Shown piece after piece: positions 11,611 to 59,220 of a stretch of DNA of 64,000 nt (positions are counted from its first letter, which is position 1; each line of letters opens with the position of its first letter). Source of the stretch: Escherichia phage vB_EcoM_G37-3. The notes beneath the pieces are model-generated. The model saw nothing but the letters and a program-made list of their open reading frames with translations. It was not told the DNA's origin and searched no databases. The stretch lies in sequence record MK327941.1; one strand, given 5' to 3'. Position numbers and translations under genes: made by a program.

Positions 11611-13662
11611 TTACATTTTAAATTTATCTGGCATTGCGTCTACAGATACCAGATCAGCGATAAGCTGACGTAGAGTTGCCTTATCTGCTTTCTTACGTTC
11701 GGTTTTAGCTTCGCTAATGAAGCTGGAGAAAGACAGGTCAGAAGCAGGTTTAACAACACCTTCACGGATGAATGCATCGCCGTCCGCGATCATCTCGCCA
11801 GATTCTTGTAATGCTGCCAGTTCATTTTTGTTCATAATATGTGCCTCAATGTAATAAGTTTCTTGTGAATCCGTCGATGCCGTAGCACGAGTTACCGTAT
11901 CAAAGGATAACACAACACCGCGAGGAAGTAAAATCTCGCATTCTTTGTAAGCAAATGCTTTGTTACCTACTGGCAAGACAGGGATGTTTTCCGCGCCAGC
12001 AATGGAGAAAGCAACATTAGCGCCACCTTCACCGCGAGAGCCAGCCATAGAATCAACACCAGCAACGGCACTAGCCACGTTTGCATTCCAGCCGCCAAAA
12101 ATGTTAGGTGCAAGGGAAGTGCTCACATAGTTTTTAAAGTAAAACGCTTTTTGCTTACGTGCAGTTTCCCACATTTGCGACCGGAAGTCCATACCACGAT
12201 ACAGAATAGTACCAGGATCAAGTTTAACGCCATAGTTAGAGAAGGCATTATCCAGTGCATCGCACATCTTGACCAATTCTTCTGGATCTGCGATTCCCTC
12301 AAACTCTTCCAGCTTACGGTCGGTTAGGAAGTTGTTCATATTGATGTATGCTGCATCGGCATATTCGCTCAACACAAAACCTTCCGCGCCTGGTAGATCA
12401 AGATCAATATCTGCCATCATTTCACCCATGTTGCTAGCAATTGCTTCAAACATACCGGAAGCAACATTACGTAGGGCATCGGTTTTAATCTGGGTGATAT
12501 GACTACGCAGCATTTCAGCTTTTACATCTGCTGGCATAGACTGGTCTACTCGATCCATTGCCAGGGCGGTGATCTTGTTTTCGAATACTTCCTCGCTCAT
12601 GATTTCTTTTAAGCGTTTGATTGATGCTGCGATAACTTCCGCAGACAATGGATCATATTGATCCTGAACTTTTACCAGTTCGCTTACTGCGTATTTTGCA
12701 TCGGCTTCGCTTTCAAAAATAGTACGCATGAAACCATAGCGAGTGATAATATCACTTGTCCAGTCATTCAGAGAACGGGCGGTTGAACGTTCTAAGGCTT
12801 GACGATCAATCAGAGTATTAAACTGTTTCTTAGGTTCGGCTTCGGTGATATCTTCTTCCGGTTTAAGATTAATTTTTTCTGGATGATTCACATAGTCGCT
12901 GTTATAGGTCGCTTGAGTTTTCAGCATTTCTTCTTTAGTCAAACGAGATTTAGCCGCTACGCGTTGTTCCGCTTCCGCGTTTCGTTCTTCTTCTGACACC
13001 AGACTAGCCGCATACGCCTCATCTTTAGTCAGAGATTCACCAGTAGCCTTAGATACCCAGCGATCACCTAAATCACTTTCTACTTTAGTGAACAAGGAAT
13101 CATCAAGTTTAATCCCTTTAATCTTATCAATCGCCATACCGCGACGCTTGACAACAACTAAAGCGATCTTTTTGCTGGTCATTACTTCCTGCTGGAATAC
13201 TTCAAACTTCGGTGTACGACGCACCAAACGCTCTATAACGCGCTTAACCAGTTCGGTCTTACCTTTCATGCGGGATACGTTAAAACGGAACATAACAGCG
13301 TCTAATTGCGCTTTACGGGCTGTTTCCATAACCACATCAAAAGCACTTGCCATAACTGCAATCGGGTTATCGCCTAGACCATTTTTAAGCTGTACAATAC
13401 GACCGCTTTTGTTCATTTCGCACAGTACAACATGCGCTGTCTTGTCACCCATACGAATGATTTTAGGTGTTTTGTTGGTGAAGTTACAAAGACGGACAAT
13501 CACATCTTTATCGCGTGTCTGTACTGCAAAAAGCTGTTTAGGATTCTGCTTAGGCTTTAAGCACTGTACCGGAGCAATACTACCAAAGTTTTCTTCCTCT
13601 TCCGTCAACAGCCATTTCTCGAAAGATTCAATCATTAGGTCGTCGATTTCTAAGTTAAACAT
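11611..13662 (-). CDS. alt: ADP-ribosyltransferase Alt
   Basis: 683 aa (T4 Alt about 682 aa); ILYRG, YVSTS, ECEILLPRG motifs. Confidence 0.9.
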   Translation of the reverse strand: MFNLEIDDLMIESFEKWLLTEEEENFGSIAPVQCLKPKQNPKQLFAVQTRDKDVIVRLCNFTNKTPKIIRMGDKTAHVVLCEMNKSGRIVQLKNGLGDNPIAVMASAFDVVMETARKAQLDAVMFRFNVSRMKGKTELVKRVIERLVRRTPKFEVFQQEVMTSKKIALVVVKRRGMAIDKIKGIKLDDSLFTKVESDLGDRWVSKATGESLTKDEAYAASLVSEEERNAEAEQRVAAKSRLTKEEMLKTQATYNSDYVNHPEKINLKPEEDITEAEPKKQFNTLIDRQALERSTARSLNDWTSDIITRYGFMRTIFESEADAKYAVSELVKVQDQYDPLSAEVIAASIKRLKEIMSEEVFENKITALAMDRVDQSMPADVKAEMLRSHITQIKTDALRNVASGMFEAIASNMGEMMADIDLDLPGAEGFVLSEYADAAYINMNNFLTDRKLEEFEGIADPEELVKMCDALDNAFSNYGVKLDPGTILYRGMDFRSQMWETARKQKAFYFKNYVSTSLAPNIFGGWNANVASAVAGVDSMAGSRGEGGANVAFSIAGAENIPVLPVGNKAFAYKECEILLPRGVVLSFDTVTRATASTDSQETYYIEAHIMNKNELAALQESGEMIADGDAFIREGVVKPASDLSFSSFISEAKTERKKADKATLRQLIADLVSVDAMPDKFKM

Positions 13663-13702: not shown

Positions 13703-13730
13703 GAAAACGGGGCTTAACGCCCCCTTTTTA
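13703..13730. terminator. terminator-like hairpin between small early gene and alt
   Basis: GGGGC-TTAAC-GCCCC followed by CTTTTTA. Confidence 0.45.
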
Positions 13731-13943
13731 TTATAATGCACCATCGAGCAATTGCTCTAAGGTGTATCCTGAATAGTCTTTTTCAATCAGGATATATTTT
13801 CCTACTCGTTTAATACAACCGCGCATTTCAACATATTCTGCGTAGTTGATGGTGCGAGTTGTTCCATCTTCTAGCAAAGCAGTACCGATTTCGTTAATGC
13901 GGTCATAAGTTACGTAGGTAATGATGATTTCGATGTTAGCCAT
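13731..13943 (-). CDS. small early protein (70 aa)
   Basis: True start MANIEIII at 13943 with AAGGAG; the longer track ORF reads through the promoter. Confidence 0.6.
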   Translation of the reverse strand: MANIEIIITYVTYDRINEIGTALLEDGTTRTINYAEYVEMRGCIKRVGKYILIEKDYSGYTLEQLLDGAL

Positions 13944-13977
13944 TTGATACTCCTTAGTAGTTCGTTTCGGTATGTGT

Positions 13978-14006
13978 ATTATAGGGGATCGATGATCCCC
14001 TGTCAA
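13978..14006 (-). promoter_or_regulatory. early sigma70-type promoter cassette (PeSL-like, palindromic spacer)
   Basis: minus strand TTGACA-GGGGATCATCGATCCCC-TATAAT, AT-rich UP region. Confidence 0.6.
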
Positions 14007-14014
14007 CAACTTTT

Positions 14015-14533
14015 TTAGTTATTTTTTAATTGCTCATCTTGCAATAGGGCAATCACATGCTGGCGATGTTCTTCCGATTGAGGCACACCGAAAAAGTTTG
14101 TTTTGTAGAAATACTCTAATCGGTCTTCTCGTGTGCTCTCTTCCATCATGATCGCGGGTAGTCCGAGATTTCGGAAACGTCGCTTTTCTGCTGGCGTAAA
14201 ATCACTGTAATACAACATAGAATCATCATTACCAGCAATGCTAAACTCATCTTTCATAAAGGAGAATATTGCGTTTAAACGCTGTTTACCGTCCACGATT
14301 TCGATCTCATAGCGAGAGCCATCATCAATCTTAGCCATTGCGATAGCACCAACCGGAAAATCATTAATCAGGTTTTCGATAAACATACGTTTGTTTTCGG
14401 TGTCCCATACCAAAGGACGCTGATAATCTGGGTTCATGTTGATATATCCATCTTCTAACCACGCCTCATAAACAGAGATGACAAAGTTTTTAGTATTGGT
14501 ATAGTAACGGCGTTTAGGCGTTAAACGGTTCAT
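14015..14533 (-). CDS. DUF262 / ParB-like nuclease domain protein (172 aa)
   Basis: PDYQRPLVW and IVDGKQRL (DGQQR-type) motifs; start MNRL at 14533 with AGGAG; last gene of 5-gene operon. Confidence 0.7.
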   Translation of the reverse strand: MNRLTPKRRYYTNTKNFVISVYEAWLEDGYINMNPDYQRPLVWDTENKRMFIENLINDFPVGAIAMAKIDDGSRYEIEIVDGKQRLNAIFSFMKDEFSIAGNDDSMLYYSDFTPAEKRRFRNLGLPAIMMEESTREDRLEYFYKTNFFGVPQSEEHRQHVIALLQDEQLKNN

Positions 14534-14534
14534 G

Positions 14535-14867
14535 TTATAGTCTCCTGAATGGATCATCACGTAAATCAATATCTTTTAAGAACTCATCCCATGAATGGCG
14601 GATATTGTTCTTAATTCTCCAGATAAGCGCAGGGATTGAACGCTCTCCCATCTGGAAGTATGGATCATATGATCCGTATGCCCAATATGCTACTACAATT
14701 CCACAATCAGAGCAATAGTATTCTATTTCACTTGCTGGCGACCAAAGTCCATCAATATGATCGGTGATCTTGCTTTCGATGTTATGGCTATGACAATCAG
14801 GGCAACGGATGCAATGACCTTGTTTATCGTAATTTGACGTTAGCGAATACTTAAACAATCTCATCAT
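14535..14867 (-). CDS. zinc-ribbon-like Cys-rich protein (110 aa)
   Basis: CIRCPDC ... CSDCG; translationally coupled to neighbours. Confidence 0.6.
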   Translation of the reverse strand: MMRLFKYSLTSNYDKQGHCIRCPDCHSHNIESKITDHIDGLWSPASEIEYYCSDCGIVVAYWAYGSYDPYFQMGERSIPALIWRIKNNIRHSWDEFLKDIDLRDDPFRRL

Positions 14868-15580
14868 AGATCCTTATTGGCTTCAAATACTGCCTTTGCG
14901 AATCCTCGCGGGGTAAGTGACCTTATAGTCTTTGTTTTCGTTCCTTTCCCGCCTAGCTTAGAATGCTGTTTACTGTACCCTTTATTAATCTGCAAAGGTT
15001 TCTTTTCTGGCATCATAAAGCCTTGTCCGGTCCATAAGCAAGTCTTTTTCGGGTACATATCACGGGCGGCAATATACTCAGGAAACGTAGGATGCTTATC
15101 ATCTTCCGGCAAATAACCGCCATATTCCCACGGATGAAACATATAATCAGGCTTACGCCACATGCTAGAGATAACGCTTACAGGATTCTCTATCATGTAG
15201 GGAACTCCTAGCCATTCACCCAAATAAGCGGTTATTTTAGCTGCCCGTACATCATGAACTTGAATCAATGGTCCTTGTTCTCGTTTCTTTCGTTCAAAGT
15301 GCGCAGCGCCACTAACAGCTAAATTGGTGCACGGTGGGAATGCAAAGATAATATCCGGTTTCCCCCATTCAAGGTCCATTGCTCTTTCCAGCCAGTTCAA
15401 ATCAATCCATGTGTTTACATAGGTAATGTTTGGATGTTCAAATCTGGTATTATACTTTTTGTATGTGCCGTGGTCGCCATCATCAGCATTAAAGCAGATC
15501 ACCTTATGACCTGCTTTAGCCCATTCTAGCCCCATTATCCCCGATCCGTCAAAGTTACAGAATATTAATTTTTGTTTCAT
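14864..15580 (-). CDS. compact C5-cytosine methyltransferase-like protein (238 aa)
   Basis: motif I-like FDGSGIMG, motif IV-like FPPCTNLAVSG (Pro-Cys nucleophile), motif VI-like ENP; no large target-recognition domain. Confidence 0.55.
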   Translation of the reverse strand: MKQKLIFCNFDGSGIMGLEWAKAGHKVICFNADDGDHGTYKKYNTRFEHPNITYVNTWIDLNWLERAMDLEWGKPDIIFAFPPCTNLAVSGAAHFERKKREQGPLIQVHDVRAAKITAYLGEWLGVPYMIENPVSVISSMWRKPDYMFHPWEYGGYLPEDDKHPTFPEYIAARDMYPKKTCLWTGQGFMMPEKKPLQINKGYSKQHSKLGGKGTKTKTIRSLTPRGFAKAVFEANKDL

Positions 15581-15822
15581 ATACGCCCCTTTAATCCAAC
15601 ACAGATTTTAGAAGGTTCTTTGCCGTGCCACATTAAGTAAAGTCCGTTAATGCGGCCTTGTTTTGTATATGATTCTTTTCTGATCTTCTTATAGTGTCGT
15701 GTTTCCTCAGCCGATTGTTTAGAATACCAATCATAAAGGAAGATGAACAAAGGCCACCCATTAGCGGCCTTAATGCAGTTATTCAAAAATTCCTTATTGC
15801 GTTTAATTAATTTTCTTTTCAC
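15577..15822 (-). CDS. hypothetical protein (81 aa)
   Basis: ORF with 4-nt overlaps to both neighbours. Confidence 0.55.
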   Translation of the reverse strand: MKRKLIKRNKEFLNNCIKAANGWPLFIFLYDWYSKQSAEETRHYKKIRKESYTKQGRINGLYLMWHGKEPSKICVGLKGRI

Positions 15823-16070
15823 GCTGCCCCCATTGGTTTGATAGTAACAGAATCTAAAAGACCTTTGTTAGCCAGTTCGCGGCAAGTTTTCAGATCCGCA
15901 ACTTCCCAACCAGCCGCAATCAGGTTATCAATCAGGCTGTTAGCAACTTCTTCGCTCATGAAAGAGCACTGTTTGCCGATGGTGTAGCGTACACGCTGTA
16001 ATTTCAGTTTACGGAAGCCTTTAACGTTCAGGTCTTTAGCGATTTTCTTTGCGGTTTCGATGTTAGCCAT
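15819..16070 (-). CDS. hypothetical protein (83 aa), first gene of operon
   Basis: ORF immediately downstream of promoter cassette. Confidence 0.6.
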   Translation of the reverse strand: MANIETAKKIAKDLNVKGFRKLKLQRVRYTIGKQCSFMSEEVANSLIDNLIAAGWEVADLKTCRELANKGLLDSVTIKPMGAA

Positions 16071-16110
16071 TGTTTGATTCTCCTAAGTGGTATCTCGTCT
16101 TGATGGTTGT

Positions 16111-16139
16111 ATTGTAGGGGAGTTATCCTCCCCTGTCAA
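16111..16139 (-). promoter_or_regulatory. early promoter cassette (PeSL-like)
   Basis: TTGACA-GGGGAGGATAACTCCCC-TACAAT on minus strand. Confidence 0.55.
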
Positions 16140-16153
16140 CACTTTTTATAAAA

Positions 16154-16321
16154 TTATTTGTTAATTTCTGGTGCGTTGCTAGGATAGTAACCTTCTTTAA
16201 CACCCAGATATTTTGCAACCATCCCTACAATCTTCTGTGCTACTACAATGTCAAATTTCAGATAATCTTCGCCGTGGGTTTCAATGATATATGCTTCACA
16301 TGCTGCTTTAGTCTCGAACAT
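16154..16321 (-). CDS. small protein (55 aa), copy 1 of duplicated gene; not in ORF track
   Basis: GGAGAATCAAA-ATG; MFETKAACEAYIIETHGEDYLKFDIVVAQKIVGMVAKYLGVKEGYYPSNAPEINK. Confidence 0.55.
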   Translation of the reverse strand: MFETKAACEAYIIETHGEDYLKFDIVVAQKIVGMVAKYLGVKEGYYPSNAPEINK

Positions 16322-16354
16322 TTTGATTCTCCTATTTCGTTTCGTTATGTGTGT

Positions 16355-16383
16355 ATTATAGGGGATCTCCCGATCCCCGTCAA
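16355..16383 (-). promoter_or_regulatory. early promoter cassette (PeSL-like)
   Basis: TTGACG-GGGATCGGGAGATCCCC-TATAAT. Confidence 0.6.
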
Positions 16384-16397
16384 CAACTTTTTTAAAA

Positions 16398-16679
16398 TTA
16401 TTCGTGATTAGTTTCGATGTTGTGCATTTTGCACCAGTTCAGCCAATCACCCAGATCCTGATAGTTAATGCTTTTATCTGCTGCCATCGTTTTTGTCTTG
16501 ATACCCATATGTGCGTTATGAGTAAGCATTTTTACAGTGAACTCAATTTTATCACCTTTAGCTTTAACATCAACCAGTTTGGTCCACTGGCTACCAGCGC
16601 CGCGAATGTTCATACCAACGATGTTTCCGATGTATGCTTCTTTGTTTTTCAGGATTTCGGTTGCTTTGATGAATTTCAT
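16398..16679 (-). CDS. hypothetical protein (93 aa)
   Basis: ORF with conserved leader and GGAG. Confidence 0.6.
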   Translation of the reverse strand: MKFIKATEILKNKEAYIGNIVGMNIRGAGSQWTKLVDVKAKGDKIEFTVKMLTHNAHMGIKTKTMAADKSINYQDLGDWLNWCKMHNIETNHE

Positions 16680-16749
16680 TTTTGATTCTCCAGTTCGTTT
16701 CGGTATGTGTGTATTATGCTATGTTCTTACTTTGGTGTCAACAACTTTT

Positions 16750-17019
16750 TTAGATATTTTCAGAAATAAATTTTAAAACTTGACGTAAATGTTTCTCATC
16801 TTTGATAGTCGCCGGAAGTTCTTCTTTTACTTCCTGTGCAAGATAGATATTTCCGTTCCAAGTGAAAGATCCGTCTTCGTTTACGCGATAGCTGAACATC
16901 CACTCGCAATCATTTTCGATTTCATATACACACAGAAGGGTGTAATCGTTAAAGCTATTGATTTCAAGGTCGAAGCCGTGACGTTTTGCAAAGTTGGTAG
17001 TGGTTTTAGTCAGAGCCAT
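16750..17019 (-). CDS. hypothetical protein (89 aa)
   Basis: ORF with conserved leader. Confidence 0.6.
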   Translation of the reverse strand: MALTKTTTNFAKRHGFDLEINSFNDYTLLCVYEIENDCEWMFSYRVNEDGSFTWNGNIYLAQEVKEELPATIKDEKHLRQVLKFISENI

Positions 17020-17098
17020 TGTTTGATTCTCCTAAATGGTATCTCGTTTCGATGTGTGTATTATGCTATAGGCCGGATCTGGTGTCAATGCCTTTTTT

Positions 17099-17123
17099 AA
17101 AAAAGCCGACACTAAGGTCGGCT
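17099..17123 (-). terminator. rho-independent terminator downstream of 17131 gene
   Basis: AGCCGAC-CTTAGT-GTCGGCT then TTTTTT on minus strand. Confidence 0.5.
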
Positions 17124-17130
17124 AATAAAA

Positions 17131-17439
17131 TCATTTAGACAAGTAATCATTCTGTGCAATACGGTCGGCGTATGCTGGTGTTATGTCAATCGCCAGCACT
17201 TTAACGCGTGCTTTCTTGCGACCTGGGTTTTCTCGTAACCAGTGCTCATGACCGTGAACATTTTTATACTTTGATGCTTCTTCAAATGTACGGATCGGAC
17301 CTGGGTAATCAGCGTAAAGGATCTCTAGGTCTTCGGTGATGTAAAAATATACATCGTAATTACTGTTCTCTAGTTTAAGCAGAGAGTTGCGAAATTGTGG
17401 TAAATTCTCGCGGGTAAATTCAACTACAAGATTTTTCAT
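17131..17439 (-). CDS. small protein family member (102 aa), HxHW / LAxD family
   Basis: YFYITEDL ... HGHEHW ... VLAIDI; paralog of six neighbours. Confidence 0.65.
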   Translation of the reverse strand: MKNLVVEFTRENLPQFRNSLLKLENSNYDVYFYITEDLEILYADYPGPIRTFEEASKYKNVHGHEHWLRENPGRKKARVKVLAIDITPAYADRIAQNDYLSK

Positions 17440-17489
17440 AGTGATATCCTCATTCAGATAGATTAAAAGGGGGCTTAACGCCCCGTATA

Positions 17490-17777
17490 TTAAAACAGTC
17501 CTTCCTGTACACCGTAGTAGAGTTCATCGCTGATAATTTCATTAATGCGACGGTGTGCATATTCCTGATTTGCGAAGTTATCAGCAAGTTCTACTTTAGT
17601 TTCGCCGTCATGAGTCCATTTAGTGATAACTTTACCATCTGCAAATTTGAAGTTGAACTCTTTAGCTACTGCATCGCGTACCAGACGTGCGAACTTGTTG
17701 TTACGGATTGCATTATCGGTTTCGTGTGCAGCGTGAGCGAATTTGTTAACTTTCAGAGTGATAGTAATGTATGCCAT
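17490..17777 (-). CDS. hypothetical protein (95 aa); paralog of 21019..21330
   Basis: shared AxR..VR.A.AKEFN.K motif. Confidence 0.6.
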   Translation of the reverse strand: MAYITITLKVNKFAHAAHETDNAIRNNKFARLVRDAVAKEFNFKFADGKVITKWTHDGETKVELADNFANQEYAHRRINEIISDELYYGVQEGLF

Positions 17778-17823
17778 AATTTGATTCTCCTAGTTAGAAA
17801 GTGTATCTCGTTTCGATGGGGAT

Positions 17824-17852
17824 ATTATGCTATATCCCCGATCCGGTGTCAA
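17824..17852 (-). promoter_or_regulatory. early promoter cassette (PeSL-like)
   Basis: TTGACA, 17-nt spacer, CATAAT. Confidence 0.5.
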
Positions 17853-17858
17853 CACTTT

Positions 17859-18137
17859 TTATAAAATAATTTTTTGATATTTTTCTATGATGTTCGTGTA
17901 AGTCACATCAACCGCTAGCACCGTTGCTTCGAATCCACCGTTTAGCCAATGGCTATGATCATGATCGTGAAAGAAACCTAGACCAGTACGAAGACCTTCT
18001 TTATATTCTGCGCGTACATTCAGTTTGTCGTCGATAAACAGATAAAACCATGAATTTTTACTAGGATTGATGATACAACCTTTCAGATTAGGGAGAATAT
18101 CACGACTAAGAATAAACTTATCACCTACTTTGAGCAT
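17859..18137 (-). CDS. small protein family member (92 aa)
   Basis: start MLKVGD with GAGGAA; FYLFIDDKL ... HDHSHW ... VLAVDV. Confidence 0.6.
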   Translation of the reverse strand: MLKVGDKFILSRDILPNLKGCIINPSKNSWFYLFIDDKLNVRAEYKEGLRTGLGFFHDHDHSHWLNGGFEATVLAVDVTYTNIIEKYQKIIL

Positions 18138-18151
18138 AATATTTTCCTCAC

Positions 18152-18460
18152 TTATAAAGTTTGACCGTTGTTTTTCGCGTAATGCTGAATGCGTGCTTGA
18201 TCTGCTTCCGCTGGTGATAGATTCCATGCGATCACTACAACTTCTGACGCATCATGATCATTATCACTTACCCAATGATTATGATTCATACAATTGTTTG
18301 CTATCGCGTGAGCAAATGATCTCATTACCGGAGACGTATAATCATAGTAACGGATTTTCAGATTTTCATCAACGTACAAGTAGATCGTATACGGCTTATA
18401 TTCAGTAACCAGTAACAGACAGTTACGCAATTCTGGGAAAATCTTTTTAGTTAATTTCAT
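18152..18460 (-). CDS. small protein family member (102 aa)
   Basis: start MKLTKK with GAGGA; YLYVDENL ... NHNHW ... VIAWNL. Confidence 0.6.
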   Translation of the reverse strand: MKLTKKIFPELRNCLLLVTEYKPYTIYLYVDENLKIRYYDYTSPVMRSFAHAIANNCMNHNHWVSDNDHDASEVVVIAWNLSPAEADQARIQHYAKNNGQTL

Positions 18461-18461
18461 T

Positions 18462-18680
18462 TTATAATCCTCGGTCGCGGCTATAGTACACGGTACGCCA
18501 TACAATTTCATGTTTCGTGTCGCTCCAGCACACGATCTCATTTACTCTTAAATCTTTGTTATCAACAAAAGATGAACATTGTGACGCTTCTTTCATCATT
18601 TTATCTGCTGTTTTCTCATCAAATACAGCACAGATTTCTTTATACACTCGATAATCTTTGAATTGACTCTGGATACTCAT
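18462..18680 (-). CDS. hypothetical protein (72 aa); paralog of the next gene
   Basis: SQFKDYRVYKEICAVFDEKTADKMMKEASQCSSF. Confidence 0.55.
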   Translation of the reverse strand: MSIQSQFKDYRVYKEICAVFDEKTADKMMKEASQCSSFVDNKDLRVNEIVCWSDTKHEIVWRTVYYSRDRGL

Positions 18681-18682
18681 AA

Positions 18683-18892
18683 TTAACACCAATCAAGAGT
18701 TTTTGAGAAAACCTCTATCCATTGTTGAGTATATGCGGTTTCTTTCCATGATACAATACCAGTAGAATAATGGTTTTTGTTTCCAGAAAAGGACGGGCAT
18801 TTTGATGCATCTTCCATCATCTTTTCGGCGAACTCTGGTTCGTATACCCGCAAAATCTGTTGATATGCTTTGTATTCTTTAAATTTGCTCAT
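18683..18892 (-). CDS. hypothetical protein (69 aa); paralog of previous gene
   Basis: SKFKEYKAYQQILRVYEPEFAEKMMEDASKCPSF. Confidence 0.55.
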   Translation of the reverse strand: MSKFKEYKAYQQILRVYEPEFAEKMMEDASKCPSFSGNKNHYSTGIVSWKETAYTQQWIEVFSKTLDWC

Positions 18893-19157
18893 AATCATTC
18901 ACTACCTTATCAGCTTCTTTTGTTGTTTTTACATCAACTGCGATAACCCGTAAAGGTTCGTCATGGTTCCACCAATGATCGTGAATATCGGCTTGTGATT
19001 TATCACCAAAGGAATCACGAATATCATTTTTACATTTATAGCTAATGTGACCGTCATAGTCAACATAAAGGTAATTATCGAAAATCGGCGTTTTTAAGAT
19101 CATACCGAAAAATCTTTCTTTGTGTGTCTTATCCAGTGTTGCAGTAATTCGCATCAT
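18879..19157 (-). CDS. small protein family member (92 aa)
   Basis: YLYVDYDGH ... HDHWW ... VIAVDV. Confidence 0.6.
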   Translation of the reverse strand: MMRITATLDKTHKERFFGMILKTPIFDNYLYVDYDGHISYKCKNDIRDSFGDKSQADIHDHWWNHDEPLRVIAVDVKTTKEADKVVNDYEQI

Positions 19158-19169
19158 AATATATTCCTC

Positions 19170-19349
19170 TTAGAAAGGGATGGTCATTTCTTGAGCTTGT
19201 ACATTCTCGTTAGGATTAAACTTCATCCAACCGATATTGTCTACCAGCATATGTACATTTTTATCATATCCTACGTGAGTAGTCAACACTAAATGTGCTT
19301 TACCTTCAACGATGATTTCCATGTACTTCTGAACTTCGATAGCTTTCAT
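19170..19349 (-). CDS. small protein (59 aa); not in ORF track
   Basis: GGAGAATCAAA-ATG; MKAIEVQKYMEIIVEGKAHLVLTTHVGYDKNVHMLVDNIGWMKFNPNENVQAQEMTIPF; own promoter cassette upstream. Confidence 0.5.
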   Translation of the reverse strand: MKAIEVQKYMEIIVEGKAHLVLTTHVGYDKNVHMLVDNIGWMKFNPNENVQAQEMTIPF

Positions 19350-19413
19350 TTTGATTCTCCGTTTGTTGTCTTGATGGGAGTATCTTACTACTCCCTTTAA
19401 TCATTGTCAACGA

Positions 19414-19581
19414 TTATTTGTTAATTTCCGGTGCGTTGCTTGGATAGTAGCCTTCTTTAACACCCAGATATTTTGCAACCATTCCGGTGATCTTCTGTGC
19501 TACTACGATATCGAATTTCAGGTAGTCTTCACCGTGGTTTGCTACAATGTATGCTTCGCATTCTGCTTTAGTCTGGAACAT
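19414..19581 (-). CDS. small protein (55 aa), copy 2 of duplicated gene; not in ORF track
   Basis: about 85 percent nt identity to 16154..16321; MFQTKAECEAYIVANHGEDYLKFDIVVAQKITGMVAKYLGVKEGYYPSNAPEINK. Confidence 0.55.
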   Translation of the reverse strand: MFQTKAECEAYIVANHGEDYLKFDIVVAQKITGMVAKYLGVKEGYYPSNAPEINK

Positions 19582-19615
19582 TTTTGATTCTCCTATATCT
19601 CGTTGGTATGTGTGT

Positions 19616-19644
19616 AGTATAGGGGATCACCGATCCCCTGTCAA
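19616..19644 (-). promoter_or_regulatory. early promoter cassette (PeSL-like)
   Basis: TTGACA-GGGGATCGGTGATCCCC-TATACT. Confidence 0.6.
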
Positions 19645-19652
19645 CAACTTTT

Positions 19653-19943
19653 TTATTCTTTATACGCATATTTCATAAATTTGTCTGCTACTTCATCGGC
19701 ATGTTCCGATTCTACGCCGGATTCGAGAACAATAGCAAGGTCGGTTTCGTCGTGACCTTCGTACCAGTGATTATGTGTGTCGTTTGAATCAATATAGAAT
19801 TTATCACCTTCGTAAGTTCGAGCAAATACATCTAAATTCTCGTCGATGTAAAAGATCCAATCTTCATAAAGAATAACCGTATTAGCAAGGTTCTTATTAC
19901 CTTCAACGAAAGGTTCGGCTACAAACAAATCAGTACGTTCCAT
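19653..19943 (-). CDS. small protein family member (96 aa)
   Basis: FYIDENL ... THNHW ... LAIVLE. Confidence 0.6.
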   Translation of the reverse strand: MERTDLFVAEPFVEGNKNLANTVILYEDWIFYIDENLDVFARTYEGDKFYIDSNDTHNHWYEGHDETDLAIVLESGVESEHADEVADKFMKYAYKE

Positions 19944-19958
19944 AGTATTTTCCTCAAA

Positions 19959-20120
19959 TTAAGAAAAAGCGTTGAAAACACCCGCCAACACAACTACGTT
20001 AGCGATAAGGCTTAAAAAGCATTTCTTGATACTTTCAGTGCAGATACCAATACTGGCAGGAATTACACCGATCACGATAGCATAAAGAATAACTGCGATT
20101 TCTTGAAATACACCGTTCAT
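19959..20120 (-). CDS. small hydrophobic membrane protein (53 aa); not in ORF track
   Basis: GAGGATAATATT-ATG; MNGVFQEIAVILYAIVIGVIPASIGICTESIKKCFLSLIANVVVLAGVFNAFS. Confidence 0.5.
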   Translation of the reverse strand: MNGVFQEIAVILYAIVIGVIPASIGICTESIKKCFLSLIANVVVLAGVFNAFS

Positions 20121-20176
20121 AATATTATCCTCAATTTGTGGGAGAGTATTACCCTCCCGATTATTGTTATACTACA

Positions 20177-20479
20177 TTACGCAAAATGGCGTGTCAATAC
20201 TTCTTTTGCTGTTCCGCTAAGATTCTCGATCTCTCCTGGCATAACATCAACCGCCAGAACTTCTACAACATCCTCTGATCCTAACCAGTGAGTATGACCT
20301 TTGTAGAACTTGATATCCCATTTATCGCTATCGCTAGCCCACCACACATCACCGTCTATAAAGTTGATGTAAAGCACACTACGACACATTGAATTAGTTA
20401 CTTTCAATACTGCGCCTTTCATCTCTTCCACGGTATGGTCTTCCATTTTGAAGACCTCGCCTACCTTAACTTTTGCCAT
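20177..20479 (-). CDS. small protein family member (100 aa)
   Basis: start MAKVKV; LYINFIDGD ... GHTHW ... VLAVDV. Confidence 0.6.
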   Translation of the reverse strand: MAKVKVGEVFKMEDHTVEEMKGAVLKVTNSMCRSVLYINFIDGDVWWASDSDKWDIKFYKGHTHWLGSEDVVEVLAVDVMPGEIENLSGTAKEVLTRHFA

Positions 20480-20480
20480 G

Positions 20481-20747
20481 TTACATGCTCCGAATATGTT
20501 TAGATGCATCTTCCAGTTCGTCGATAGTGACACTGTGAGCCAGTAAGTGTACTGGTTGTGGTTCTTCACCTTCCATAGTATTGATCAGATGACCGTTTCC
20601 TGGGTGGAATGTATCGTTGCCGTTCCAAATAGCATACACATCATCTTCTGTTACGTAGATAATAAGTCCAATCGGTGATTCTGGTAATTGAAAAATTTTA
20701 CCCACTGCATCTTTGCGATTGTTTACGATATCTTTTACTGTCTTCAT
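20481..20747 (-). CDS. small protein family member, divergent (88 aa)
   Basis: IIYVTEDD ... GNGH ... LLAHSV. Confidence 0.5.
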   Translation of the reverse strand: MKTVKDIVNNRKDAVGKIFQLPESPIGLIIYVTEDDVYAIWNGNDTFHPGNGHLINTMEGEEPQPVHLLAHSVTIDELEDASKHIRSM

Positions 20748-20766
20748 TTAGTTACCTCTCGTTAAA

Positions 20767-20946
20767 TTACATCACAATCACGCCAGCCGTTGAAAGTTGA
20801 TGTTTCAACTGAGCATTTTCTGCTACTGTCAAATCAATGATTTCTTGTGACGCTGCAATCATATAGCCATTGGTGATATTGTTTTGCATCAGTTCAATGG
20901 TTTCTTCGTTGTAGCGGATTTTAGCGATGATTTCGTTGAAGTTCAT
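20767..20946 (-). CDS. small protein (59 aa); not in ORF track
   Basis: GGAGAATCAAAC-ATG; MNFNEIIAKIRYNEETIELMQNNITNGYMIAASQEIIDLTVAENAQLKHQLSTAGVIVM. Confidence 0.5.
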   Translation of the reverse strand: MNFNEIIAKIRYNEETIELMQNNITNGYMIAASQEIIDLTVAENAQLKHQLSTAGVIVM

Positions 20947-20980
20947 GTTTGATTCTCCTAGTTCGTTTCGGTATGTGTGT

Positions 20981-21010
20981 ATTATAGGGGAGTTTAACCT
21001 CCCTTGTCAA
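20981..21010 (-). promoter_or_regulatory. early promoter cassette (PeSL-like)
   Basis: TTGACA-AGGGAGGTTAAACTCCCC-TATAAT. Confidence 0.6.
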
Positions 21011-21018
21011 CAACTTTT

Positions 21019-21330
21019 TTAAAGTTTTTCCATGATAACGGTCATAATTACATCTTCTGCGCGGGCGGTCAGATTATCAGCGTCAGCATGTGGGCGGTTG
21101 GTTGTTACAGAGATAACACCGTTGCGCACTGGTTTGATATTGATATCAAGATGATCCGCGAAACGTTCGCCAGTTACAGAATGAATTTTGGTGTTAAATT
21201 CTTTTGCCAGTGCCTTGCGAACTTCACGAATCAGGATAGCGTTTTTCAGTTGGTTCTCCGCGCTCATGGTCTTCTGGGTGTTCATGGTTCCGTCGAAGTC
21301 AATCATTGGCAGCGTTACGATGTATTTCAT
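21019..21330 (-). CDS. hypothetical protein (103 aa); paralog of 17490..17777
   Basis: ORF with conserved leader. Confidence 0.6.
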   Translation of the reverse strand: MKYIVTLPMIDFDGTMNTQKTMSAENQLKNAILIREVRKALAKEFNTKIHSVTGERFADHLDINIKPVRNGVISVTTNRPHADADNLTARAEDVIMTVIMEKL

Positions 21331-21375
21331 TTTTGATTCTCCGTTTAAGAAAGTGTGTTTCGTTTTGATGTGTGT

Positions 21376-21404
21376 AGTATAGGGGATACGTGATCCCCTG
21401 TCAA
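21376..21404 (-). promoter_or_regulatory. early promoter cassette (PeSL-like)
   Basis: TTGACA-GGGGATCACGTATCCCC-TATACT. Confidence 0.6.
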
Positions 21405-21417
21405 CAACTTTTTTGAA

Positions 21418-21762
21418 TTATTTTTTCATGAGCTTAATGGCTTCTTCCATAGCCAGCACATTTCGATAGTTAGGGTATCGTGTTAGATCGTCATACATTC
21501 GCTTAAGGGTGGAAACTTCCTCAAACTCTGGGTTTTCTAGATACAGTTGAACAAATTGTTTCTCTACCATCTCGGCTTTTAGCTTGTCTGCTTGTTCCTG
21601 TTCATATGATTTCGTTGGACCCAACACCAACAAAATGATAAAGGTGATCAACGGGCTAATGATCAATGATAGGATAACATAACCGATAACGCTACGGTTT
21701 AAACGGCTTGCGTACATGCCTACCAGGAAAACAAAAAGGATATAGATAAACAGAAAGAACAT
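21418..21762 (-). CDS. membrane protein (114 aa)
   Basis: two hydrophobic N-terminal segments. Confidence 0.6.
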   Translation of the reverse strand: MFFLFIYILFVFLVGMYASRLNRSVIGYVILSLIISPLITFIILLVLGPTKSYEQEQADKLKAEMVEKQFVQLYLENPEFEEVSTLKRMYDDLTRYPNYRNVLAMEEAIKLMKK

Positions 21763-21769
21763 ATAATGG

Positions 21770-22243
21770 TTACTCCTTATTTTCGCGCTCGTACTTTTCG
21801 AAATAAAATTCTACTGGCTGGTCATGAATTGACAGCAAGCCAAAGCGTTTAGCCGCTCGCAATCCCATATTGCGCTGAATGTACTTCTGGAAGTTCTCGC
21901 GTATACACTTACGCCAGTATTCTAAGCCCATACAGCTTTTATAAAGATTGCATTGCACACACGCCGGATTCATGTTATCAAGTATATCATGTTCCGGTTT
22001 ATGCATTCCTACAACCTTATACTTCCACGATCCATCATCATTACGGGCAATTCGTCCATTTTCATCATAGACTACCTTTGAGCGTCGCAATACTGGTTTG
22101 ATGTGGTCTGCGTGCCAGCGATCCCCTAGTTCCTCGCCACAATAGGCACAACGTCCACCATATTTCATTTTCAGGATCTGGCGTTGCTCTTTCTTTGACA
22201 ATTTTTTAGGTTTAGGGGCTTTCGCCCCTTCATTATCACACAT
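21770..22243 (-). CDS. small HNH endonuclease-like protein (157 aa)
   Basis: CAYCGEEL ... HADHIKP ... PACVQCN (HNH zinc-finger pattern); overlaps ligase stop. Confidence 0.65.
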   Translation of the reverse strand: MCDNEGAKAPKPKKLSKKEQRQILKMKYGGRCAYCGEELGDRWHADHIKPVLRRSKVVYDENGRIARNDDGSWKYKVVGMHKPEHDILDNMNPACVQCNLYKSCMGLEYWRKCIRENFQKYIQRNMGLRAAKRFGLLSIHDQPVEFYFEKYERENKE

Positions 22244-23738
22244 CGAATACCTCTTTTACTGTATTTGCAGTGGTCTTGTCGTAGCGAATACGTTTGATGA
22301 TCGGGAGAAATAAAGAGAACTCCGGTTCATCTTCTTTACGTGATTTGCTGCGGATATACCCGTTGCATGTCATCTCAATGACTTTTCCAATCAGGTTATG
22401 ACGGTCAGCCCATAACATTTCTCGGTCGAGTTCATTTCGACGATCGAACGGAATTACACGTTCAATACCATCATCACCTTTTTCGGTTGTAGTGTCGGTT
22501 AATCCCGATCCGGTGTTAGTCATCATTCGTCCGCACGCACTACGGACAGTAAAACCGCCTACCTTATTGGGGTCTTTACTATGCGGATATACATCAACAA
22601 TTTCCGCGTCGAAGTCAATCACTTCTTTAAATTTAACCTGATCTTTACTACGGCGATCTTCAAATACACCATGTAAATTTTTAAGGATAATACCTTCTAA
22701 GCCCATGTTTACATAGCGATGATATACTTCGCGAGCTTCATCTATATTGTTAACTACAGTGTTTTCGATTATCTGAACACGAGGATCGTTAAGTTCTTCA
22801 ACAATCTGTTTTAGTTCTTCGAATCGATCTTTATATTGCTTCGTTGCTTTCTCGTTTCCGTAATACACATCACGGTCGATAACATCCCAGACAGTATAAA
22901 CAATACATTGGGCTTCTTCTTTTGGAATAGTTCCTTTAAGTGATTTGTTGAGGATACCATTTCCGGTCTGACGGTCTGCAACAACGGATTCTTTTACTGC
23001 TTCCGCTACTGGCGTTAATGGCATTTCCTCTTCTTCAAATATCCATGACAGAGTACCATCATAAACGCTTTCAACGAAGTTCTGCGCTGGTGTTTGCGAA
23101 AGGGTAGGCATATATACCAATTCGCCATCTAGAACAATTCCACGGCCTCGTAGACGCTCTAAAACCGCAAACAAATCATCAAGTCCCTGATAGGTATTAC
23201 CTGAACGGGTATAGATTGCTAATGTTTCCCCGTCAATATCAGCCATACCACGAGCACCATCGCTTTTAAGTTGTGCATACGCCGGATACTTGATATTAGC
23301 AATAGCCTTATCAGAATATGACGATGCAAGGTGACACGGTTGCTGGGGGATCAGTTTCTTCCATACCTTGTTTGCAGTGGTAGCGGAACAACCACATTCC
23401 AGATCACGATTCAGGACCATCATTGCAACTTTAGCATCATCTTCTGACAAGCAAGTCAGAGTATCGGTAACTAGCTGTAATGCTGCGTTACCAGTTACTT
23501 GACGCGTGGCAAGTTTATTTTTAAAGACCTGTAATGCACCGGATAAAGACAATACAGACGAATAACGCGATGGTTTATCGTATTTCTTTACGCCAAACGT
23601 AACCTGTTTGCAATATGCCAGATAAAAGCATTCTTTCAGTGTTTCATTGCTTGCAGATTCTTTCAGGATCTTTTCTTTCAGCGATGTTTTGTCTGTTGCT
23701 GCAAGCTGGTTAATGATATTAAGAATTGACATTTTCAC
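22236..23738 (-). CDS. 30: ATP-dependent DNA ligase gp30
   Basis: 500 aa; KSDGAR active-site motif; aligns with T4 ligase. Confidence 0.9.
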   Translation of the reverse strand: MKMSILNIINQLAATDKTSLKEKILKESASNETLKECFYLAYCKQVTFGVKKYDKPSRYSSVLSLSGALQVFKNKLATRQVTGNAALQLVTDTLTCLSEDDAKVAMMVLNRDLECGCSATTANKVWKKLIPQQPCHLASSYSDKAIANIKYPAYAQLKSDGARGMADIDGETLAIYTRSGNTYQGLDDLFAVLERLRGRGIVLDGELVYMPTLSQTPAQNFVESVYDGTLSWIFEEEEMPLTPVAEAVKESVVADRQTGNGILNKSLKGTIPKEEAQCIVYTVWDVIDRDVYYGNEKATKQYKDRFEELKQIVEELNDPRVQIIENTVVNNIDEAREVYHRYVNMGLEGIILKNLHGVFEDRRSKDQVKFKEVIDFDAEIVDVYPHSKDPNKVGGFTVRSACGRMMTNTGSGLTDTTTEKGDDGIERVIPFDRRNELDREMLWADRHNLIGKVIEMTCNGYIRSKSRKEDEPEFSLFLPIIKRIRYDKTTANTVKEVFDV

Positions 23739-30160: not shown

Positions 30161-30193
30161 CTTGATACTCCTTAGTTGTTTTGGTATGGGAGT

Positions 30194-30222
30194 ATCTTAC
30201 TACTCCCGTGATATGCTGTCAA
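30194..30222 (-). promoter_or_regulatory. early promoter cassette (PeSL-like, stem-loop overlapping -10)
   Basis: TTGACA, 17-nt spacer, TAAGAT inside GGGAGTA..TACTCCC hairpin. Confidence 0.5.
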
Positions 30223-30230
30223 CTGCTTTT

Positions 30231-30380: not shown

Positions 30381-30418
30381 TTGATTCTCCTTAAAGTGTA
30401 TTTCGTTTCGATGGGGGT

Positions 30419-30666: not shown

Positions 30667-30699
30667 TTTGATTCTCCTTTGTTTCGTTTCGATGGGAGT

Positions 30700-58994: not shown

Positions 58995-59150
58995 TTAAAT
59001 TTCTTCTACAGTAAAGTCTTCAATGTTGTTGTGCTCGGAGAACGTTGCCAGACCAGCATTCCATGCATCATCCTCAGAGAAGAATACGCCGTAACGTTCA
59101 TATCCTTTAGAGCCTTCAAATTTAACCATTAATTTGTGAGTATGTTTCAT
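58995..59150 (-). CDS. small protein (51 aa)
   Basis: true start MKHTHK with AAGGAG; the track ORF N-terminus MLTGDRRSPI is translated promoter sequence. Confidence 0.5.
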   Translation of the reverse strand: MKHTHKLMVKFEGSKGYERYGVFFSEDDAWNAGLATFSEHNNIEDFTVEEI

Positions 59151-59181
59151 TTTGATTCTCCTTCGTTGTCTTGACGAGTTT

Positions 59182-59210
59182 AGTATAGGGGATCGGCGAT
59201 CCCCTGTCAA
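59182..59210 (-). promoter_or_regulatory. early promoter cassette (PeSL-like, palindromic spacer)
   Basis: TTGACA-GGGGATCGCCGATCCCC-TATACT. Confidence 0.6.
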
Positions 59211-59220
59211 CAACTATTTT

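Follow-up and report, generated by a model that had tools for sequence, protein, structure and literature searches.

Promoter early stem-loop (PeSL) cassettes in the hyperplastic region and other early gene clusters of a Krischvirus coliphage

PeSLs and comparable gene cassettes

Promoter early stem-loops (PeSLs) were defined in the ORF185-ORF212 region of the coliphages phi1 and RB49 (Arbiol, Comeau, Kutateladze, Adamia and Krisch 2010, Genome Biol Evol 2:140; PMC2839356). The published definition specifies a stable Gn-loop-Cn stem-loop that may occupy any of five positions (over the -35, over the -10, between the two, upstream of the -35 or downstream of the -10), and the roles proposed for PeSLs are to turn on small early genes and to act as recombination points at which those genes are added, deleted or swapped (PMC2839356). 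Assays covered PeSL193/192, PeSL206/205 and PeSL211/210: a lacZ fusion to PeSL206/205 gave about 13,000 Miller units, and the PeSL211/210 stem-loop, the single hairpin covered by the termination test, terminated transcription about as well as rrnB T1 (PMC2839356). Mini-circles detected by inverse PCR have been published for ORF192 and ORF210, with crossovers between the -10 and the ATG. The RB49/phi1 group, the former pseudo-T-evens, is now Krischvirus.

PeSLs have also been described in T4/PST and KVP40/nt-1 (Comeau, Arbiol and Krisch 2014; PMC4122927). These share the combination of promoter and stem-loop, the hyperplastic location and the link to gene swaps, but their promoters (TTTACW..TAYWAT and TTGYVH..TAWWAT) and stems (AGnA..TCnT and A3-4G3..C3T3-4) differ, and they are analogues, not homologues, of the Gn..Cn type with a near-consensus sigma-70 promoter reported here. 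Integron cassettes and lambdoid "morons" likewise bring single small genes with their own expression signals into permissive regions. Unlike integrons, PeSLs involve no integrase or attC site, and each cassette has its own promoter in place of the common Pc; unlike morons, their regulatory sequence is itself the recombination substrate.

Number, location and identity of the copies

The window (the whole 64,000-nucleotide stretch analysed) comes from an RB49/phi1-like coliphage of the genus Krischvirus, and the interval 13978-21404 is its hyperplastic region, which lies between alt and the gene 30 ligase and matches ORF185-ORF212 of phi1 and RB49. The pattern TTGACA-N17-TANNNT occurs 20 times in the window, 19 of them on the minus strand, against 1.26 expected (16-fold), and none of 100 shuffles reached 20. 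A profile seeded with 16 copies, with hits counted at E<2e-4, found 21 copies, every one on the minus strand; 10 of these are in the interval and 11 outside it. The repeats are therefore real, and the figure of at least 20 given in the preliminary description is valid for the window as a whole but not for 13978-21404 alone, because only 10 of the 21 lie there. The additional sites it named were recovered at 30157-30738 (three copies), 33584-33649, 38451-38511, 39668-39732 and 58939-59506 (three copies). Two further copies, at 30961-31011 and 59703-59779, were missing from its list.

The copies are confined to minus-strand early gene clusters, where they lie upstream of, and co-oriented with, small ORFans; the profile search of the window found none in the plus-strand structural blocks (4-10 kb and 44-56 kb). 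The copies of the hyperplastic region follow, each with the gene that it is predicted to drive.

13939-14018, minus strand: PeSL, ORF185 homologue (13731-13943); -35 at 14006; GGGGATC-atc-GATCCCC between -35 and -10
16067-16155, minus strand: PeSL, ORF190; GGGGAG-gataa-CTCCCC between -35 and -10 (TACAAT); core identical in RB49, GEC-3S, FL15, JSE, KMB43 and FL04
16317-16399, minus strand: PeSL, ORF191; -35 TTGACG; hairpin GGGGATC-ggga-GATCCCC; RB49 has an extra ORFan192 here
16678-16756, minus strand: PeSL-type promoter and leader, ORF193; no hairpin (MFE 0.0; upstream 70 nt unstructured)
17016-17123, minus strand: PeSL, ORF194; profile hit 17016-17104; terminator-type hairpin upstream of the UP element (17104-17123, AGCCGAC..GTCGGCT plus T6)
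17775-17868, minus strand: PeSL, ORF198; GGGGATAT-agcata-ATATCCCC overlapping the -10 (CATAAT)
19346-19424, minus strand: PeSL, ORF204; GGGAGTA-gtaaga-TACTCCC overlapping the -10 (TAAGAT)
19578-19657, minus strand: PeSL, ORF205; orthologue of the published PeSL206/205; GGGGATC-ggt-GATCCCC in the spacer; differs from the phi1 orthologue only in the hairpin loop (copy 19644)
20125-20197, minus strand: candidate 22nd, divergent PeSL before a 53-aa ORF; TTGACA-17-TAGTAT; GGGAGGG-taa-TACTCTCCC downstream of the -10; GAGGA-type Shine-Dalgarno; profile E=3.3 only; adjoins the 19958-20118 replacement breakpoint
20943-21025, minus strand: PeSL, ORF209; GGGAG-gttaaa-CTCCC; 18-nt spacer (copy 21010); left end of a 746-bp deletion in Brandy
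21328-21418, minus strand: PeSL, ORF210; orthologue of the published PeSL211/210; GGGGAT-cacgt-ATCCCC; 40-nt core identical to RB49 PeSL211/210 (copy 21404); left end of the ORF211 indel

The remaining copies lie elsewhere in the window.

30157-30237, minus strand: PeSL upstream of the RB49p225 homologue; GGGAGTA..TACTCCC over the -10; 99.7% identical to the RB49 site
30377-30462, minus strand: PeSL upstream of the p226 homologue; GGGGGTA..TACCCCC over the -10
30663-30738, minus strand: PeSL upstream of the p227 homologue; GGGGGTA..TACTCCC with a G.T pair
30961-31045, minus strand: weaker PeSL upstream of the p228 homologue; profile hit 30961-31011 (E=3.7e-6); no internal hairpin; upstream terminator hairpin at 31022-31045 (AGTCGCC..GGCGACT plus T6)
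33584-33649, minus strand: PeSL just downstream of nrdA; -35 TTGACG; GCGGGGA-gaaa-TCCCCGC in the spacer (z=-4.7)
38451-38511, minus strand: weak PeSL-type promoter upstream of the p239 homologue; no convincing hairpin; E=4.9e-5
39668-39775, minus strand: PeSL-type promoter between gene 32 and an endonuclease gene; profile hit 39668-39732; TIR GGAGGATAAAA; its upstream hairpin is the gene 32 terminator (39752-39775); RB49 homology ends here
58939-58999, minus strand: PeSL upstream of the p262 homologue; decayed hairpin GAGTA..TACTC over the -10, full GGGAGTA..TACTCCC in the RB49 counterpart
59146-59225, minus strand: PeSL upstream of the p263 homologue; GGGGATC-gcc-GATCCCC in the spacer
59430-59506, minus strand: PeSL upstream of the p264 homologue; ATGGGAGTA..TACTCCCAT over the -10; RB49 homology ends inside it
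59703-59806, minus strand: PeSL-type promoter; profile hit 59703-59779; TIR GGAGATTCAAA; upstream terminator hairpin at 59784-59806; RB49 homology begins here

These repeats very probably belong to the PeSLs as strictly defined, the composite regulatory cassettes known from RB49/phi1-type coliphages, which makes the cassettes themselves an already published finding. They share with the RB49 and phi1 PeSLs the genus, the hyperplastic region, TTGACA-N17-TATAAT with an AT-rich UP region, the positional subclasses of Gn-loop-Cn, the Shine-Dalgarno/ATG end and the association with ORFan indels. The copies are orthologous to those of phi1 and RB49 site by site, with strain-level differences only, and the GEC-3S annotation places promoters at the same sites. 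The preliminary description had suggested this identity correctly but attributed the class to the RB43 group; it was described in RB49 and phi1, and the only mention of RB43 concerns "PeSL-like sequences" close to gene 43.

Promoter, leader and stem-loop

From 5' to 3', a PeSL consists of an A-rich UP region, TTGACA, a 17-nt spacer (18 nt at copy 21010), a TATAAT-like -10, the conserved leader ACACATACCGAAACGA and GGAGAATCAAA-ATG, in agreement with the preliminary description. Nine of the interval's PeSLs score at least 11/12 against the sigma-70 consensus and constitute its nine best matches, and the remainder score at least 10/12. In most copies the stop codon of the upstream gene lies within the AT-rich UP region, as TAA plus AAAAAGTTG directly 5' of TTGACA. 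Mechanical ORF calls at 13731-14009 and 58995-59213 begin at a TTG just 5' of TTGACA, and for these two the earlier remark that promoter sequence is translated as N-terminal extensions is correct.

A GGAG Shine-Dalgarno sequence lies 10-13 nt 5' of the ATG in 18 of the 21 window copies, and exact GGAGAATCAAA occurs in 12 of them; over 11 sources taken together, 90 of 126 copies have it. The target of the T4 RegB/S1 endoribonuclease is the 11-nt sequence GGAGRAYARAA, single-stranded and located in the translation-initiation region (TIR) of an early gene (Durand et al. 2006, PMC1702504). The PeSL translation-initiation block GGAGAAUCAAA matches this site at 10 of 11 positions, lies in the Shine-Dalgarno region of early genes and stays unpaired in predicted folds, but T4 sites disfavour the C that it carries at position 8. 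A divergent RegB is encoded in RB49. The likeness, possibly unreported until now, is a resemblance to a cleavage site rather than demonstrated membership of that class.

The hairpin lies between the -35 and -10 in eight copies, across the -10 in seven and just upstream, as a terminator hairpin, in four, and two copies have none; six thus lack an internal hairpin. No hairpin over the -35 was seen among the window copies, and one downstream of the -10 occurs in the candidate at 20125-20197. The preliminary description had placed two palindromes in the spacer. GGGGATC..GATCCCC does lie there, but GGGAGTA(N6)TACTCCC straddles the -10, with TAAGAT beginning within the loop and its final T falling in the 3' arm. 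Nor do two palindromes account for every copy, since six have no internal hairpin and there are further stems: GGGGAG/CTCCCC, GGGGAT/ATCCCC, GCGGGGA/TCCCCGC, GGGGATAT/ATATCCCC and GGGGGTA/TACCCCC.

Hairpin-bearing copies fold 2-4.7 SD below shuffles and hairpin-less copies do not, and stem pairing is 96-100%, against 29-75% in slid registers. The stems show four compensated pairs and G.U intermediates, among them two compensated pairs at the ORF198 site, which reads GGGTGTAT..ATACACCC in JSE, KMB43 and Brandy. Few independent events underlie this covariation, and only one of the three registers has a convincing shuffle control (2/500, against 59-129/500 in the others).

An intrinsic-terminator scan flagged only the four upstream hairpins, which combine a GC-rich hairpin with a U-run. 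None of the 15 internal hairpins was flagged because they have no T-run; their tails read TATAAT.. or ATCGAAAC.. and fall outside the canonical definition of an intrinsic terminator. The G4..C4 palindromes might be primarily double-stranded DNA sites bound by a dimeric protein of the phage that represses early promoters or targets recombination, or cruciforms cut by a structure-specific nuclease, rather than RNA terminators. They sit within or across the promoter core, where repressors act, they lack U-tracts, their GGGG/CCCC ends are almost invariant, and the PeSL authors themselves speculate that GGGG...CCCC is the target of a recombination protein. We nevertheless consider a primary role of this kind unlikely. 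At least four registers relative to the -35 and -10, some 20-50 nt upstream, are hard to fit to one operator geometry, inner stem changes are compensated, loops are free in length (3-6 nt) and sequence, and the hairpin that terminated transcription in the reporter is identical to that of copy 21404. The two roles are also compatible with each other. By extension from this one hairpin, the others without a U-tract would also act as terminators.

Gene gains and losses at PeSLs

Each of nine relatives (RB49, phi1 and seven others) has 6-12 syntenic PeSLs, and the copies outside the interval are syntenic in RB49 in 11 of 11 cases. The comparison of flanking gene content suggested in the preliminary description finds conserved positions, together with chimeric PeSL junctions at gene gains and losses in the window phage and KFS-EC, in Brandy (two) and at the already published ORF192 site of RB49. 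The window phage lacks ORF186 and ORF192 and therefore has single chimeric PeSLs at both sites. ORF186 is absent from the window phage and KFS-EC and present in 8 of 9 relatives, and the PeSL at 13939-14018 joins a 5' half equivalent to phi1 PeSL187/186 to a 3' half equivalent to PeSL186/185 (alignment A1). The crossover zone in this alignment agrees with that of the published mini-circles.

Recombination between PeSLs would account for only part of the breakpoints. Of 17 breakpoints in the region, all at gene junctions, seven fall at PeSLs and about ten elsewhere, and PeSLs are not over-represented (7/17 against 10 of 25 gene junctions; P=0.55). Indels also end at the PeSL-free junctions 14530, 15579/15806, 18677, 19958 and 20479/20745, and two genes rare among relatives are present here, an 88-aa ORF (20481-20747) and a 53-aa ORF (19959-20120). 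Such figures are what would be expected if PeSLs were simply vertically inherited early promoters and leaders, overlapping with indels because viable indels must end at gene junctions. We regard this as very unlikely on the structure of the junctions themselves. In chimeric PeSLs, 40-90 bp of sequence is repeated on the two flanks of the indel. At the ORF194 PeSL, RB49, KMB43 and Brandy have a 406-bp insertion carrying ORF195/196, with 82 bp of PeSL sequence repeated on its flanks. Three independent events map to one PeSL, at 16391-16402 (in RB49 an insertion of 537 bp, in JSE a different one of 367 bp, and in FL04 the left end of a replacement), and one hairpin type has taken the place of another at an orthologous site, that of ORF209, with three types among relatives. 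A PeSL-ORF unit has been duplicated 3.2 kb away (ORF191/ORF205), with homology from the UP element to the stop codon, and the published mini-circles have PeSL crossovers. The structure of the junctions thus supports shuffling by recombination, as proposed in the preliminary description, but only about 40% of the observed breakpoints can be explained in this way.

The integron-like organisation could point to movement by a dedicated mobility enzyme (a transposase, a homing endonuclease or an integrase of the integron kind) in place of general homologous recombination, as could the HNH endonuclease genes that flank the region (21770-22243) and have varied insertion points in relatives. We find this extremely improbable: the cassettes lack terminal inverted repeats and target duplications, crossover points vary within the shared sequence, the annotations of the nine relatives show neither an integrase nor a transposase in the region, and among ten proteins scanned downstream of PeSLs only ORF187 has a confident domain (GmrSD_N), the other nine having no confident Pfam family.

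Homologous recombination between PeSLs remains the preferred reading. A PeSL unit begins with the upstream gene's stop codon and ends with the ATG of the gene that follows. It contains an A-rich UP element and a near-consensus sigma-70 promoter, which unmodified host RNA polymerase would read immediately after infection, and usually also a G-run/C-run hairpin, a conserved leader of about 30 nt and a GGAG Shine-Dalgarno block. Since the hairpin lies upstream of the unit's own start, it is transcribed only in RNA from further upstream, and in such read-through RNA it may terminate or attenuate transcription and so insulate every small early gene or mini-operon. For orthologous copies the literature establishes promoter strength, mini-circle formation and termination by a single hairpin; every copy in the window is probably active. 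Because the copies share some 80-100 bp of nearly identical sequence, homologous recombination by the phage can produce crossovers between them, and these would delete, duplicate, insert or swap the intervening genes and leave a functional chimeric PeSL.

Number, position and identity of the PeSL copies

The repeated element proposed for this region is real. In the 64-kb window there are 20 matches to TTGACA-N17-TANNNT where 1.26 would be expected; 0 of 100 dinucleotide shuffles reach that number, and 19 of the 20 matches lie on the minus strand. A profile HMM seeded with 16 obvious copies found 21 promoter-early stem-loop cassettes (PeSLs) in the window at E<2e-4, all 21 on the minus strand. 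The preliminary description had placed at least 20 copies in 13978-21404; this figure holds for the whole window and not for the interval by itself, which has 10. Every further site listed there was recovered by the HMM, together with two absent from that list (30961-31011 and 59703-59779). In an independent consensus scan, the nine top sigma-70 matches in the interval were PeSL promoters, each matching at 11-12 of 12 positions.

PeSL copies found by the profile HMM
13939-14018, minus, in interval
16067-16155, minus, in interval
16317-16399, minus, in interval
16678-16756, minus, in interval
17016-17104, minus, in interval
17775-17868, minus, in interval
19346-19424, minus, in interval
19578-19657, minus, in interval
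20943-21025, minus, in interval
21328-21418, minus, in interval
30.16-30.74 kb, minus, three copies outside interval
30961-31011, minus, outside interval
33584-33649, minus, outside interval
38451-38511, minus, outside interval
39668-39732, minus, outside interval
58.94-59.51 kb, minus, three copies outside interval
59703-59779, minus, outside interval

A divergent candidate 22nd copy, with its hairpin downstream of the -10, lies at 20125-20197. Directly downstream of it is a strongly hydrophobic 53-aa ORF (19959-20120), probably encoding a membrane peptide, in place of the 190-bp ORF207 of phi1, RB49, GEC-3S, and KMB43.

Judged by sequence, these repeats are PeSLs as already published, here in the type genus and at the type locus. 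About 60 Krischvirus genomes align with the interval at 92-98% identity, with FL15 as the best match and RB49, phi1, JSE, and GEC-3S among the others. Its counterpart in phi1/RB49 is ORF185-ORF212, bordered in the window by alt (11611-13662) and by the genes for the HNH protein and the gene 30 ligase (21770-23738). PeSLs were defined in this hyperplastic region by Arbiol et al. (2010), who studied PeSL193/192, 206/205, and 211/210 there, as well as the ORFans 192 and 210 (PMC2839356). At these intergenic positions the GEC-3S record, too, has annotated promoters with -35/-10 signals. Run on the homologous region of nine relatives, the profile detects 6-12 syntenic copies per genome, on the minus strand, and RB49 has a one-to-one counterpart for 11 of the 11 window copies that lie outside the interval. 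Every sequence-level defining feature of RB49/phi1-type PeSLs is present, including positional orthology, and the finding is already known, with nothing categorically new. Its earlier attribution to the RB43 group was an error, the type phages being RB49 and phi1. Arbiol et al. mention RB43 solely for "PeSL-like sequences" near gene 43 (PMC2839356), and RB43 does not appear in the follow-up by Comeau et al. (2014), where the concept is widened to T4/PST and KVP40/nt-1, whose consensus sequences differ (PMC4122927). The review of T4 genomes by Petrov et al. (2010) does not mention PeSLs, and literature searches found nothing relevant on Krischvirus transcript mapping.

Cassette anatomy and the role of the hairpins

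At its 5' end a PeSL begins with the stop codon of the upstream gene and an A-rich tract (TAAAAAAGTTG). Next come TTGACA and a TATAAT-like -10, separated by a 17-nt spacer, and after them a conserved leader (ACACACATACCGAAACGA or ATCGAAACGAGATAC...) and GGAGAATCAAA, which lies 10-13 nt from the ATG. As had been suspected, mechanical ORF calling mistranslates this promoter sequence: the calls at 13731..14009 and 58995..59213 start at a TTG directly before TTGACA, giving a spurious N-terminal extension of ~21 residues. Translation truly starts at the ATG that follows GGAG(T/A)ATCAAA, a rule of use in annotating the genus.

Anchoring the hairpin analysis on exact TTGAC (an anchor allowing one -35 mismatch lands on upstream TTAACA/TTGAAA strings in six copies), we found a hairpin within the spacer in eight copies, in forms including GGGGATC-N3/4-GATCCCC, GGGGAG-gataa-CTCCCC, GGGAG-gttaaa-CTCCC, GGGGAT-cacgt-ATCCCC, and GCGGGGA-gaaa-TCCCCGC. 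In seven others it lies across the -10, the loop holding most of the hexamer (GGGAGTA-gtaaga-TACTCCC, GGGGGTA-gtaata-TACCCCC, and GGGGATAT-agcata-ATATCCCC); the earlier reading of GGGAGTA(N6)TACTCCC as a 17-nt spacer is wrong, because this hairpin straddles the -10. Four copies without an internal hairpin have a classical GC hairpin with a T-run just upstream of the UP element (17104-17123, 31022-31045, 39752-39775, and 59784-59806), and two, with -35 at 16741 and 38497, have no hairpin at all. The commonest spacer hairpin, GGGGATC..GATCCCC (13978-14006, 16355-16383, 19616-19644, and 59182-59210), places two GATC (Dam) sites within the promoter core. A methyltransferase gene lies in the same region, and a link to methylation-sensitive promoter activity is conceivable.

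The fold energy of hairpin-bearing cores is 2-4.7 SD below that of shuffles, which is not so for hairpin-less cores. Formal covariation clearly beat its shuffle control in only one of three hairpin registers, because most copies are near-identical; independent changes are few. We therefore rely, rather than on the shuffle counts, on the preservation of pairing (96-100% of stem positions, against 29-75% with the 3' arm slid) and on compensated pairs, of which there are four; a single orthologous site shows both UA<->GC and GC<->AU. The stems also show an AU->GU->GC series.

In published experiments, PeSL206/205 gave ~13,000 Miller units of lacZ activity, most PeSL clones acquired -35/-10 mutations, implying toxic promoter strength, and the stem-loop of PeSL211/210 lowered downstream lacZ about as much as rrnB T1 (PMC2839356). 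The core of the copy with -35 at 21404 is identical to RB49 PeSL211/210 over 40 nt, and that of the copy at 19644 differs from phi1 PeSL206/205 solely in the loop. All 21 copies would be fired early by host sigma-70 polymerase. The hairpins would lie upstream of their own transcription start and would thus act on read-through RNA from upstream units alone. A point against this reading is that a standard terminator scan did not call the 15 internal hairpins, which lack a U-run, and gave no support to their being intrinsic terminators. A less likely alternative, also raised by the authors of the PeSL paper, is that the hairpins are a protein target in duplex DNA. Their variable register and compensated stem changes point to selection on structure rather than on a fixed operator geometry.

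A 15-nt hairpin with T-run, GGGGCGTTAAGCCCC, occurs twice in the window as a terminator-like site, at 13709-13723 after ORF185 (readable on both strands and facing alt) and at 17470-17484 after ORF198. Terminators, like promoters, may be repeated in this region.

Gene gain and loss at PeSLs and elsewhere

Collinear alignment with the nine relatives gave 17 distinct breakpoint positions. ORF186 with one PeSL (211 bp) is present in eight of the nine and absent from the window and KFS-EC, with a 40-bp overlap; the single PeSL at this site in the window is chimeric, matching phi1 PeSL187/186 in its 5' half and PeSL186/185 in its 3' half, the crossover falling in the shared block ATAATACACACATACCGAAACGA. 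Three relatives differ from the window at 16391-16402: RB49 carries the 537-bp ORFan192, an example used in the PeSL paper itself (PMC2839356), JSE carries a different gene, of 367 bp, and in FL04 a 3.7-kb replacement has its left end there. In RB49, KMB43, and Brandy, 82 bp of PeSL sequence are repeated on the flanks of ORF195/196 (406 bp); two separate absences in Brandy, one of ORF191 and one of ORF210-211, each leave a chimeric PeSL; and ORF211 is missing from phi1, GEC-3S, and FL04, the left end being the PeSL at 21328-21418. These events carry in their sequences the signature of recombination between direct PeSL repeats. Three copies outside the interval, at 39.7, 59.45, and 59.75 kb, each mark a point where homology to RB49 breaks. 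The window also contains one PeSL+ORF unit in duplicate, represented by ORF191 and ORF205 (proteins 89% identical), with DNA homology running from within the UP element to the stop codon, and the orthologous PeSL210/209 site has three different hairpin types among relatives, indicating exchange between copies. ORF185 (13929-13943) and ORF190 (16056-16070) share their first five codons (ATGGCTAACATCGAA, MANIE) and diverge totally thereafter, suggesting that PeSL homology, and possibly crossovers, can reach a few codons into the downstream gene.

Homologous recombination between these 80-100-bp repeats would excise, duplicate, or swap genes. The proposal that PeSLs shuffle the intervening genes is supported by the chimeric junctions and not by positional preference. 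Of the 17 breakpoints, 10 lie elsewhere (14530, 15579/15806, 17894/18677, 19958/20118, 20479/20745, and 21783). Under a uniform null, the 7 of 17 breakpoints within 15 bp of a PeSL exceed the 14% expected by length (P=0.006). All 17 fall at gene junctions, and 10 of the 25 junctions have a PeSL, so that no enrichment is left under a gene-junction null (P=0.55), and we dropped proximity as a sign of recombination preference. The case for PeSL-PeSL recombination therefore consists of the chimeric junctions and the mini-circles detected by inverse PCR, with crossovers between -10 and ATG (PMC2839356), and not of position counts. The PeSL share of breakpoints in the region, ~40%, is no more than their share of gene junctions, and PeSLs are one recombination route of several. 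Mobility of the MITE, transposon, or integron type was rejected because terminal repeats and target duplications are absent and none of the nine relatives has an integrase annotated here.

Other parts of the region vary in their own ways. An 88-aa ORF (20481-20747), which the window shares with FL15 and JSE alone and which is cleanly missing (junction within 3 bp) from the seven other relatives, has no PeSL on either side, pointing to a gene-boundary indel by another route. Tandem families of small paralogous genes occupy 17131-20479 (minus strand), pairing ORF197 with 18152-18460 (36% identity), 17859-18137 with 18879-19157 (30%), and 18462-18680 with 18683-18898 (40%); several have an H-x-H-W motif followed by (V/I)LA(V/I)D, and this array, not a PeSL, is where some of the replacements between relatives (17894..18677) are located. 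The sole long PeSL-free stretch, 14015-15822 (minus strand), is a tight four-gene block that may be a DNA-modification or anti-restriction module: ORF187 has a GmrSD_N/DUF262 domain (E=4e-20), ORF188 a weak zinc-ribbon match below the Pfam cut-off, ORF189, with no Pfam match here, carries the annotation C-5 cytosine/DNA methyltransferase in relatives, and ORF189.1 is missing from JSE. In FL04 an additional gene, of 172 bp, separates ORF187 from ORF188.

A candidate RegB/S1 site and the significance of PeSLs

In T4, the RegB/S1 site is the single-stranded 11-mer GGAGRAYARAA, most often GGAGAAUAAAA, typically the SD of an early gene, and C at position 8 is disfavoured (PMC1702504); RB49 encodes a divergent RegB (PMC3014915). 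Exact GGAGAATCAAA, matching this consensus at 10 of 11 positions and having the disfavoured C at position 8, is present in 12 window PeSLs (at 13944-13954, 16073-16083, 16322-16332, and others), and GGAGGATAAAA, matching at 11 of 11, in one. Across 11 sources, 90 of 126 PeSL copies have the exact 11-mer, 10-13 nt from the ATG, and the near-invariant GGAGAAUCAAA is conserved as a block despite the drifting distance. Genes internal to PeSL mini-operons have GAGGA-type SDs. We tentatively suggest, while thinking it somewhat doubtful, that GGAGAAUCAAA could be a RegB/S1 endoribonuclease site and a third functional module of the PeSL, one that those who described PeSLs did not discuss: Arbiol et al. 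mention neither RegB nor GGAG (PMC2839356), and RegB does not appear in the passages of Comeau et al. consulted (PMC4122927). If so, any gene behind a PeSL would be on at time zero, shielded from upstream transcription, and post-transcriptionally off minutes later, internal genes of mini-operons would escape RegB, and the PeSL would be a complete plug-in unit for "early and transient" expression.

Recognizing PeSLs also corrects the starts of small early genes that mechanical ORF calls run into the promoter. The window is an independent reconfirmation with genomes that did not exist in 2010: the sites recur, some chimeric junctions are new, and one PeSL is duplicated together with its ORF. Few concrete mechanisms at the sequence level have been proposed for the shuffling of accessory genes in large lytic phages while the core genome stays undamaged, and PeSLs are one of them.
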